Below are positions 26,992 to 28,356 of a DNA stretch of 64,000 bases, one piece after another. Below the pieces are notes generated by a model. The model worked only from the letters and a program-made list of their open reading frames with translations, searched no databases and was not told where the DNA came from. The DNA is from Gammaproteobacteria bacterium. Lineage in GTDB: Bacteria; Pseudomonadota; Gammaproteobacteria; JABDBA01. The DNA lies in contig JABDBA010000001.1 in assembly GCA_013288885.1 (NCBI GenBank), positions 147,840-211,839 on the forward strand. The letters are read 5' to 3'. Position 1 is the first letter of the stretch, and each line of letters begins with the position of its first letter. The translations under genes were made by a program, and so were the position numbers.

Positions 26992-27024
26992 TTAATGCTG
27001 CTGATTATCCCGATTTCAACACCC
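26992..27024 (+). repeat. 33-bp direct repeat, left copy (ttaatgCtgctgattatcccgatttcaacaccc)
   Basis: 32/33 identical to 28324..28356. Confidence 0.9.
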
Positions 27025-27087
27025 CTTCGAAACGCCAATCCGCTCTGTCGCTGGCGCTCCTTGAGCTGACCTATCGACACTTTTAGA

Positions 27088-27154
27088 TCGAATTAGATTG
27101 ATAAAGTCTAATTAGATTTTGAAAATCTAATTAGATTGTGTTAATCTAATTAGA
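27088..27154. promoter_or_regulatory. Array of four TCTAATTAGA palindromes (operator-like) upstream of 27173
   Basis: tcGaattaga at 27088, and tctaattaga at 27108, 27126 and 27145, with 18-20 bp spacing. The last ends 19 nt before the ATG. Confidence 0.7.
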
Positions 27155-27172
27155 TCTAAAAGGGGGCTCCTC

Positions 27173-28252
27173 ATGGTAAGAGATTTATGGCATTTCCCAC
27201 GCTTAAGGCTGGCGCAACAAGTAATAGGCATGTTTGATACCAATCTATCAAGCGCCCTTATCTTTTTTGCCCCACGGCGCATGGGTAAAACTGAGTTTTT
27301 AAATAAAGACATTCAACCGATTGCTAAAAAACAGGGCTGGTACACGTTTTACTTTAGTTTTTTAGATGCCGGAACAGATATACAAGAGGAATTTGTTCGC
27401 GCATTAGTAGAGTTCGCTGAAAAAATAGGGGCTATAAAAGCCGGGCTTTTGTCGCATATTCAAAAAATAGGGGGTGAAGTAGCTGGAGTTAAAGGAAGTT
27501 TAGAACTAAGGAAGCCAGAGCTTATCCAGTATAACATGAAAAACATAATTTCCCGTTTGGCCGACCACGGGAACATTCTATTGCTCATGGATGAAGTGCA
27601 AATACTCGCAAAAAATCAGGATAATGAACGCTTTGTCGCAGGTTTGCGCACTGCGCTTGACCTCTACAAAGATAATGTGAAGGTTATATTCACTGGGTCA
27701 TCTCGCCAGGGATTGCGCGATATGTTTTCTCAAGCCAGCGCACCATTCTTTCATTTTGGCCAGAACCTACCGTTTCCTGAATTAGGTCGGGAATTTACCG
27801 ACCATTTGTCGGATGTATTTGAAAAAGTAACACGCCGTAAATTGGATAAAAAGATTTTGTGGGACTCGTTCTTAGAAATGGAGAAAGTGCCCCAGCTTGC
27901 TAGGTCGTTGGTGGAACGGCTTGCGTTGAATCCCGATCAAACGATTAATGAAGCCAAAAAACAATTGCTGGTCGATATATTCAATGATCGTGCGTTTGTA
28001 GAAATATGGGGGAGTGCTTCTAAACTCGAGCAATTGTTGCTGCGAGAGATTGCCATCGGATTTGAAGCTTTATTTAGCGAACAAGCCCGCACTACTTTGG
28101 CGAAAACACTAGGGATTGATGAATTAGGGGTCCCAGCAGTGCAGTCTGCATTACGCGTGCTACAGAAAAAACATTTGATTGGAAAAACTTCTGATCGGTC
28201 GGGCTATTTTATTGATGACCCCAATTTTAAAAATTGGCTGCAAAACCTATAA
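27173..28252 (+). CDS. P-loop ATPase (PF01637-like)
   Basis: 359 aa. Walker A FAPRRMGKTEF, Walker B ILLLMDEVQ. Confidence 0.7.
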   Translation: MVRDLWHFPRLRLAQQVIGMFDTNLSSALIFFAPRRMGKTEFLNKDIQPIAKKQGWYTFYFSFLDAGTDIQEEFVRALVEFAEKIGAIKAGLLSHIQKIGGEVAGVKGSLELRKPELIQYNMKNIISRLADHGNILLLMDEVQILAKNQDNERFVAGLRTALDLYKDNVKVIFTGSSRQGLRDMFSQASAPFFHFGQNLPFPELGREFTDHLSDVFEKVTRRKLDKKILWDSFLEMEKVPQLARSLVERLALNPDQTINEAKKQLLVDIFNDRAFVEIWGSASKLEQLLLREIAIGFEALFSEQARTTLAKTLGIDELGVPAVQSALRVLQKKHLIGKTSDRSGYFIDDPNFKNWLQNL

Positions 28253-28278
28253 TTGGCTCAAAGGTTTGATCTTGTATT

Positions 28279-28344
28279 CGGGATAATCAGCAACTCTATT
28301 GCTGGATATCCGGATAATCAGCATTAATGTTGCTGATTATCCCG
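28279..28344. repeat. Two overlapping 14-7-14 palindromic sites (recombinase-core-like)
   Basis: cgggataatcagca-actctat-tgctggatatccgg and ccggataatcagca-ttaatgt-tgctgattatcccg. The second is 13/14 complementary. Confidence 0.8.
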
Positions 28345-28356
28345 ATTTCAACACCC
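28324..28356 (+). repeat. 33-bp direct repeat, right copy
   Basis: See the entry for 26992..27024. Confidence 0.9.

Follow-up and report, generated by a model that had tools for sequence, protein, structure and literature searches.

The stretch of DNA analyzed here (hereafter the window) comprises 64,000 nucleotides of contig JABDBA010000001.1 (assembly GCA_013288885.1) from a gammaproteobacterium of the lineage JABDBA01, and carries immediately upstream of gyrB a gene for an AAA+ ATPase that resembles the origin recognition complex (ORC) and Cdc6 proteins. This gene is enclosed by 33-bp direct repeats, the right one of which forms part of a nested palindrome, and the whole arrangement lies in DNA that the closest relative found does not possess. 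We propose, tentatively and with somewhat less than even confidence, that the repeat-bounded segment is a decayed single-gene islet similar to an integrative mobile element exploiting Xer (IMEX) or to a cis-mobilizable element (CIME), and that a tyrosine recombinase supplied in trans, for which XerL is the prime candidate, joined it to the chromosome at a dif-like palindrome. The features on which this proposal depends are listed below by their positions in the window.

26085..28368, no strand: extra DNA, absent by alignment from the msrBA-gyrB spacer of the closest relative (133 bp there)
26992..27024, no strand: left 33-bp direct repeat, made up of a spacer-like TTAATGC, one half-site TGCTGATTATCC and 14 more bases
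27080..27162, plus strand: four (T)CTAATTAGA palindromes arrayed with 19-bp spacing, a conserved promoter-operator of the ATPase family
27173..28252, plus strand: gene for the 359-aa ATPase_2-like AAA+ protein, which resembles ORC/Cdc6 and has a winged helix at its C-terminus
28272..28351, no strand: 80-bp nested palindrome with four half-sites (GGATAATCAGCA / TGCTGATTATCC)
28324..28356, no strand: right 33-bp direct repeat, the right part of the nested palindrome, abutting the ancestral gyrB promoter block

Repeats, nested palindrome and inserted DNA

The two direct repeats are identical at 32 of 33 positions, with a single C/T difference at position 7, and were found where an earlier note on this DNA had placed them, as were the ATPase reading frame and the start of gyrB at 28452. 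When up to three mismatches were allowed, the repeat matched the window twice and none of 100 dinucleotide-preserving shuffles of it, and its 26-nt core occurs exactly twice in the source assembly (2.59 Mb, 84% complete), both times at the ATPase locus. The repeats are not a product of chance and are found nowhere else in the genome. The left repeat is without the other palindrome arm, whereas the right repeat lies inside a complete palindrome.

The perfect palindrome at the right end, GGATAATCAGCA-TTAATGT-TGCTGATTATCC, has a 12-7-12 layout and spans 28309-28345; its arms extend to 14-15 nt if one mismatch is allowed, and an imperfect palindrome at 28278-28314 precedes it. The earlier note had described two 14-7-14 sites here, and both were located; however, the second (28279-28313) is imperfect, with three mismatches in its right arm and a 6-bp overlap with the perfect site, and the pair forms one nested palindrome. 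As a single strand, the 80-bp element folds with -42.6 kcal/mol (z = -6.7). Its central sequence, read on the minus strand, is AATGCTGATTAT-CCGG-ATATCCAGCAAT, a geometry like that of a dif site recognized by XerL. In the right copy, the position equivalent to the left repeat's left edge is where the left arm of the perfect palindrome meets its 7-nt spacer. The possibility that the palindrome is a terminator was rejected, as a T-tract is missing and a consensus scan made no call.

Other palindromes were observed in the genome. A pair of (A)TGTTCCACGTGGAACAT palindromes at 17022-17039 and 17773-17790 bounds a 734-bp nest of repeats resembling repetitive extragenic palindromic (REP) sequences or miniature inverted-repeat transposable elements at the 3' end of recF, and the 10-mer CATTAATGTT, which precedes the second of these copies, also spans the arm/spacer boundary of the palindrome beside gyrB (28322-28331). 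Long perfect palindromes with related arms (…ATTATCGGACACTTATA-N7-TATAAGTGTCCGATAAT…, TGTGTTA…) are positioned at C1:560630, C1:560685, C3:21961, C3:22111, C1:297550 and C6:32041 of the source genome (G000), and this set may represent operators of further ATPase-type genes.

The source genome is the sole member of its order in the species set compared, and few relatives at the DNA level are available. Of the gyrB genes found, the closest (85% protein identity) is located on a 10-kb contig, L125, on which the order is msrBA, 133 bp, gyrB and priA, and the gyrB promoter and leader are conserved with this contig back to approximately position 28369, 12 nt past the right repeat. Because L125 has msrBA, the 133-bp spacer and gyrB without any trace of what lies between 26085 and 28368, these approximately 2.3 kb are inserted DNA. 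The description of the segment as a captured single-gene cassette therefore holds in that the DNA was acquired, the ATPase gene being absent between msrBA and gyrB in this relative, but not in its extent: L125 lacks the whole 2.3 kb rather than the 1.33-kb segment alone, and no att-like sequence is present there. The insert contains two small minus-strand open reading frames (ORFs) with no family match, a truncated Panacea antitoxin gene, a 76-codon ORF and the repeat-bounded ATPase segment, and a third copy of the repeat was not found at its msrBA end. The spacer between recF/msrBA and gyrB, close to the origin, is a hotspot of accessory DNA in this lineage. The neighboring features are as follows.

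25209..26084, minus strand: msrBA (SelR and PMSR domains), the left chromosomal flank, assigned by profile and by the gene order of the relative
26426..26890, plus strand: SocA/Panacea antitoxin gene, N-terminally truncated (154 aa versus ~180-190 aa in homologues)
26856..26991, plus strand: 5' portion (45-46 codons) of a gene for a small toxin-like membrane protein, truncated at the left repeat (full length elsewhere ~110-122 aa)
~27038..27075, plus strand: degenerate member of a genome-specific family of REP-like dispersed repeats (39 copies)
28369..30869, plus strand: right chromosomal flank, consisting of the gyrB promoter/leader block (28369-28451) and gyrB (28452-30869), assigned by alignment

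The left junction can be placed precisely. At two loci that carry the closest Panacea homologues, a 122-codon gene encoding a small membrane protein comes after the antitoxin gene and overlaps it. Over its first 45-46 codons, the 76-codon ORF shows clear homology to this Panacea-linked toxin, the likeness ending at ...INLFF. At the DNA level, homology to the toxin gene runs through ttt ttc (26985-26990) and ends at 26990/26991, and the repeat starts at 26992. Since the toxin gene is cut within 1-2 nt of the repeat edge, the left edge of the left repeat is, as judged from these alignments, a genuine recombination junction, and the earlier suggestion of a hybrid junction at the left copy is upheld in this respect. 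The 3' part of the toxin gene is not present beyond the right side of the cassette.

The REP-like family represented inside the segment has the consensus ..GTCGGCTCCGTCGCTGGCGCTCCTTGAGCCGACCTAC, and copies also occur at 17280-17620 of the window. Its unit is often paired head-to-head with a second hairpin unit, yielding elements of approximately 85 bp. The repeat was not seen in the fetched loci of other organisms, and no REP-associated tyrosine transposase (RAYT; Y1 transposase, PF01797) that could belong to the family was found in the assembly. As a side observation on the right flank, the gyrB frame is open for 51 codons upstream of the conserved ATG, through the right repeat (28299-28451), and the predicted GyrB (P0121) has 820 aa, which is 15 residues more than the 805 aa given by the conserved ATG.

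The ATPase family, its operator and its mobility

The ATPase scored 28.3 bits against Pfam ATPase_2 (PF01637; E = 1.9e-6), below the gathering cut-off of 33.2, and precomputed annotations of its homologues name PF01637 and PF13173; searches against NCBIfam and against PDB sequences gave no match. An AlphaFold model built with 31 homologues (predicted local distance difference test score, pLDDT, 82; predicted template modelling score, pTM, 0.77) comprises an AAA+ core, a lid and a C-terminal winged helix. Its best whole-length structural matches are PAB2304 (PDB 2qen) and SSO1545 (2fna), with TM-scores of 0.65 and 0.60 and Foldseek E-values of 9e-12 and 8e-11, respectively, followed by Orc1/Cdc6 proteins. 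GKT and D140-E141 are invariant. The protein cluster of the ATPase itself (P0001) has one member only, and the collections contain no genome nearly identical to this one. Homologues with 50-72% identity are numerous in Legionellales, Coxiellaceae, Berkiella, Francisellaceae and Babeliales, and homologues with 34-55% identity occur in Acinetobacter, Pasteurellaceae, Neisseriaceae, Cardiobacteriaceae and Burkholderiales. The family is patchy across orders, is present on 90 plasmids as well as on chromosomes, and is represented by single genes between unrelated housekeeping genes; none was found in IMG/VR viral contigs.

A larger ATPase of the ATPase_2/DUF234 type is encoded upstream in the window (22807-24282), matches the PADLOC candidate defence family PDC-S27 (E = 3e-165), and has its own tandem palindromes with 16-nt arms (TGTGTTATCCCGCCCC...) directly before the start codon. 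A literature search on PF01637/DUF234 returned unrelated matches only.

The four palindromes upstream of the ATPase gene (27088-27154) consist of TCGAATTAGA, which differs from the rest by one mismatch, followed by three copies of TCTAATTAGA, and they occur at this locus alone in the genome. At least one TCTAATTAGA-like site (up to two mismatches) was observed within 200 bp upstream of the gene in 50 of 64 homologous loci, usually in arrays and often between a TTGACA-like box and a -10 (TAnnnT) box, and more distant ATPase clades have TATAATTATA, TACAATTGTA, ACTAATTAGT or GTAATTATG in the same position. Because these sites are conserved upstream of homologues and change with the protein clade, the array can be assigned as the family's own promoter-operator and not as a recombinase core, which the earlier note had taken the palindromes to resemble. 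Most likely, the winged helix of the ATPase binds this operator and represses its own gene.

Homologous loci were also informative about mobility. Direct repeats of at least 17 nt around the gene were found at 4 of 40 homologous loci versus 1 of 160 shifted controls. Flanking repeats as a general property of the family were nevertheless rejected, as two of the four cases were trivial (uptake-signal hairpins and operator copies) and the Haemophilus case is accounted for by a tRNA-SeC island and a TA-gene remnant; for the case in Plasticicumulans, no relative with the same flanks was found. In Haemophilus (loci L121, L138 and L140), the ATPase gene is positioned at the far, mutS-proximal end of an island at the tRNA-SeC gene; one congener has the empty site, with tRNA-SeC followed by mutS, and in another Haemophilus the ATPase gene lies alone between the tRNA gene and a 134-bp duplicate of the tRNA end and downstream DNA. 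An 80-bp repeat in H. influenzae proved to be a remnant of a toxin-antitoxin (TA) antitoxin gene. In Acinetobacter (L069-L077), a block of 2.5-3.3 kb containing the ATPase gene is 97-99% identical across species while its flanks differ, and by eye the block abuts an apparent partial tRNA gene, although a tRNA scan of L069 called none. The ATPase family thus rides islands that are made by integrases and that decay to single genes, which makes a decayed recombinase-made islet a reasonable interpretation at gyrB too.

XerL, dif-like sites and the explanations weighed

In Legionellales, one divergent recombinase, XerL, resolves chromosome dimers at a dif site with perfectly symmetric arms of 10-12 bp (PMC9765430). 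The L. pneumophila element LME-1 integrates at dif through a 22-nt dif mimic, AAGTCTGATTATTTTGATAATC (PMC5071653), and in the integrated element att is duplicated as direct repeats, one full and one of shortened symmetry, which stabilizes integration (PMC9765430). The source genome encodes an XerL orthologue of 410 aa (G000:C7:92299-93585), which is 59% identical over 97% of its length to a plasmid-borne recombinase of Coxiella burnetii that has been identified as XerL (PMC9765430), and which scores 24.7 bits against Pfam Phage_integrase, below the cut-off. Only two tyrosine recombinases were matched in the assembly, this orthologue and a P4-like integrase, and no XerC/D was detected. The 398-aa integrase encoded at the start of the window was considered as XerL and rejected, being a generic P4-type integrase with approximately 30% identity to many others.

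The half-site beside gyrB shares a CTGATTAT core with the XerL/dif arm of Legionellales, as in the L. pneumophila dif, AAGTCTGATTAT-TTTG-ATAATCAGACTT, which we infer from the att sequence and the stated symmetry. A Coxiellaceae genome with an XerL orthologue contains a perfect CTGATTAT-N4-ATAATCAG. In the source genome, a unique and very AT-rich perfect palindrome with XerL dif geometry, AGTAATATTAAT-TTCG-ATTAATATTACT (12-4-12), is present at C10:65165-65192; as the host dif it is a possibility without skew support, the GC skew of that contig being too flat.

A search of 241 million metagenome records for palindromes with exact arms found 10 contigs, mostly with single hairpins in unrelated settings, and the palindrome was not found in viral contigs. 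Two of the 10 contigs, L133 and L127, have the double-palindrome layout of the window. In L127 an AAA_14/DUF4143 ATPase gene begins 85 bp downstream of the double palindrome, and in L133 the double palindrome lies between an HMG-CoA lyase gene and a higBA module (2215-2305). The L133 element is 85% identical to that of the window over 60 nt, shares with this genome the 12-nt arm AATGCTGATTAT, and comes from a distant, Legionellales-like organism (60% protein identity of the HMG-CoA lyase). Of the 22 positions of the LME-1 att, its centre, AATGCTGATTAT-CTTG-ATAAACAACAAT, agrees with 18; among the 5.2 million positions of the source genome, the highest agreement is 17. In addition, it is positioned within a few kb of a plus-to-minus switch of GC skew, as would be expected of a dif at the terminus, on a short contig of 12.8 kb. 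The L133 element may be the dif site of that organism, with higBA lodged beside it. Since the centre of the window element itself matches the LME-1 att at only 15 of 22 positions, its link to dif rests on its homology to the L133 element.

According to our proposal, the ATPase gene and its four-palindrome promoter-operator are a horizontally acquired single-gene module, which occupies the side nearest gyrB in the accessory DNA piled up between msrBA/recF and gyrB. A tyrosine recombinase supplied in trans would have joined the module to the chromosome at a dif-like palindromic site, the most plausible enzyme being XerL of the host, since Legionellales have this one Xer recombinase. On the gyrB side the junction retains the full nested palindrome, and the other junction retains 33 bp of it, fused to the truncated Panacea toxin gene. 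It is the recombinase origin of the junctions, the identity of the recombinase and the order of events that we infer here; the acquisition of the gene would be of an ordinary kind, and the putative docking site is what would be unusual. The cassette is probably immobile at present, or mobilizable only in trans.

Several observations weigh against this proposal. The repeat, the 12-nt arm and the full palindrome were found genome-wide at this locus alone, no second cassette bounded by the palindromic site was found, and 400 other sampled genomes of the class yielded one match, at two mismatches; the earlier note had asked whether the palindromes were unique to the locus, and they are single-copy. 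The msrBA-gyrB spacer of L125 shows no trace of cassette, repeat or palindrome, and absence of the site from a relative without the ATPase is an outcome that the earlier note had called refuting. The arm motif was not found near 80 homologous ATPase loci, nor were pdif-like XerC/D sites found around the chromosomal and plasmid homologues of Acinetobacter, including the A. lwoffii plasmids. The 15 of 22 matches between the window centre and the LME-1 att are equalled by 553 positions in this AT-rich genome. The half-sites of the perfect palindrome are opposite in orientation to those of dif, and the geometry of dif is present only in the imperfect centre. The locus lies 15-20 kb from the minimum of cumulative GC skew and from dnaA, that is, near the origin and not the terminus, and a host dif, sought in the incomplete assembly through resemblance to the Legionella dif and among perfect palindromes rich in AT, yielded no convincing candidate. 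No compositional anomaly of the cassette was detected, and the genome-specific REP copy inside the segment implies that the cassette is old, in the sense of long resident, or partly native.

A serious rival, to which we accord a lower but real likelihood, is palindrome-stimulated illegitimate recombination without a dedicated recombinase. Two palindromic copies would once have flanked the ATPase gene, or the short 33-bp identity would have been used, and a break provoked by the hairpin at the loop of the left copy would have been joined to the toxin gene, deleting the 3' part of the latter and most of the left palindrome. This fits a junction placed exactly at the arm/loop boundary of the hairpin form, an element that forms a very stable hairpin of 68-80 nt (z = -6.7), and the truncation of both neighboring TA genes, indicative of deletional decay at this spot; it also fits the presence in the same intergenic tract of another insertion bounded by duplicated palindromes (17022-17039 / 17773-17790), and a site that is unique and has no recombinase gene linked to it. 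However, the presence of two element copies around one acquired gene is left unexplained, as is the likeness of the L133 element to the XerL dif and the LME-1 att. The junction's position is itself indecisive both ways, since about a quarter of random breaks would land within 2 nt of an arm/spacer boundary, of which there are four.

It is rather improbable, in our estimation, that the nested palindrome serves a dimeric DNA-binding protein as its operator, upstream of accessory ATPase or TA genes or of gyrB, in which case the left 33 bp would be a remnant of the ATPase gene's own upstream copy and the repeat would reflect duplication of a regulatory module. The positions of the element agree with such a role, as the L127 copy lies 85 bp upstream of its ATPase gene and the L133 copy upstream of higBA, and in the window the left copy is 148 bp upstream of the ATPase gene and the right copy 96 bp upstream of gyrB; moreover, many long perfect palindromes lie beside ATPase-type genes in this genome, for example, upstream of the ATPase at 22807. 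On the other hand, the ATPase gene already has its family-specific operator, the higBA module of L133 has a promoter palindrome of its own, the gyrB promoter of the relative works without the element, no candidate binding protein is common to the three loci, and the truncation junction would be left unexplained. Transposition with a 33-bp target-site duplication, or a local tandem duplication, is effectively excluded, despite the direct repeats around a discrete insert and the 21-nt inverted ends (19 of 21 complementary) of the segment 26999-28292. These ends are merely the half-sites of the palindromes, a transposase is absent, the gene truncated at the left flank does not continue on the other side, and a duplication of 33 bp is, to our knowledge, far longer than in known bacterial transposons; tandem duplication is excluded because the repeated part is 33 bp only and does not include the gene.

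Comparison with known systems

The earlier note had likened the sites to dif/pdif modules and attC, and no likeness to XerC/D pdif or to attC was found. Like an integron cassette, the segment consists of a single promoter-proximal gene followed by an imperfect palindromic site. Unlike it, the cassette has its own promoter, and integron integrase, attI and array are lacking here, the best score with an integron-integrase profile being 17 bits, for the distant P4-like integrase. In addition, integrons use a 7-bp core whereas the repeat here is 33 bp, and the palindrome is without the R''-L''/L'-R' organization of attC. With the pdif modules of Acinetobacter plasmids, the segment has in common its small size, inverted arms around a short spacer and the lack of an internal recombinase; it differs in that XerC/D-type arms are missing, in that there is one complete site, on the right side only and unique in the genome, and in that pdif modules have alternating site orientations whereas the repeats here are direct. 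The comparison of sequences therefore indicates that the cassette is neither a pdif module nor an integron cassette, and makes it a candidate IMEX only. That bacteria of the Legionellales type dock small recombinase-less cassettes, such as TA modules and defence-like ATPases, at off-terminus dif-like XerL sites is a wider generalization that we regard as very unlikely; by analogy, such docking would be the chromosomal counterpart of the pdif-module system with XerL as the single recombinase, a parallel that we hold to be just as doubtful.

CIMEs and decayed genomic islets resemble the segment in their att-like direct repeats around integrase-less cargo and their accretion beside a conserved gene, and the Haemophilus homologue lies in a tRNA-SeC island with duplicated att-like sequence. 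In contrast to CIMEs, the target here is not a tRNA gene, and no cognate integrase-bearing element was identified; the sole P4-type integrase lies 25 kb from the cassette. The spacer between recF/msrBA and gyrB accumulates accessory DNA in this lineage, whatever the mechanism.

The ATPase itself resembles archaeal PAB2304, SSO1545 and Orc1/Cdc6 over its whole length in predicted fold, and the repeated sites beside its gene parallel the origin recognition boxes (ORBs) beside orc1/cdc6, although the sequence identity to the archaeal ATPases is only 15-17%. We regard it as similarly unlikely that the ORC-like ATPase together with its four iteron-like palindromes might let an excised circle replicate; repression is the simpler role because the palindromes lie inside the ATPase promoter. 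Whatever the mechanism of acquisition, our results reveal a large and uncharacterized family of ORC/Cdc6-like ATPases that is spread, on plasmids as well as chromosomes, over Legionellales, Acinetobacter, Pasteurellaceae and Neisseriaceae, and in which the co-evolving palindromic operator makes the DNA-binding specificity directly testable.

Among the closest known systems is also LME-1, an IMEX of L. pneumophila (PMC9765430, PMC5071653). LME-1 differs from the cassette in being a phage-like element of approximately 30 kb at the terminus dif, in contrast to a 1.3-kb single gene approximately 20 kb from the origin, and the window site is a weak match to its att (15 of 22) and a nested palindrome of four half-sites. 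Both, however, have short direct repeats of a palindromic att or att-like site at their ends, with one full junction site and the other of shortened symmetry, and neither would need a recombinase of its own, the host XerL acting in trans for LME-1. In addition, the half-site core CTGATTAT is common to both, and the host of the cassette encodes an XerL orthologue. If XerL acts at this site, the elements that borrow Xer in Legionellales would extend from LME-1 at the terminus to tiny single-gene cassettes elsewhere on the chromosome, which would provide intracellular bacteria that have few integrases with a route to shuffle defence and TA genes.

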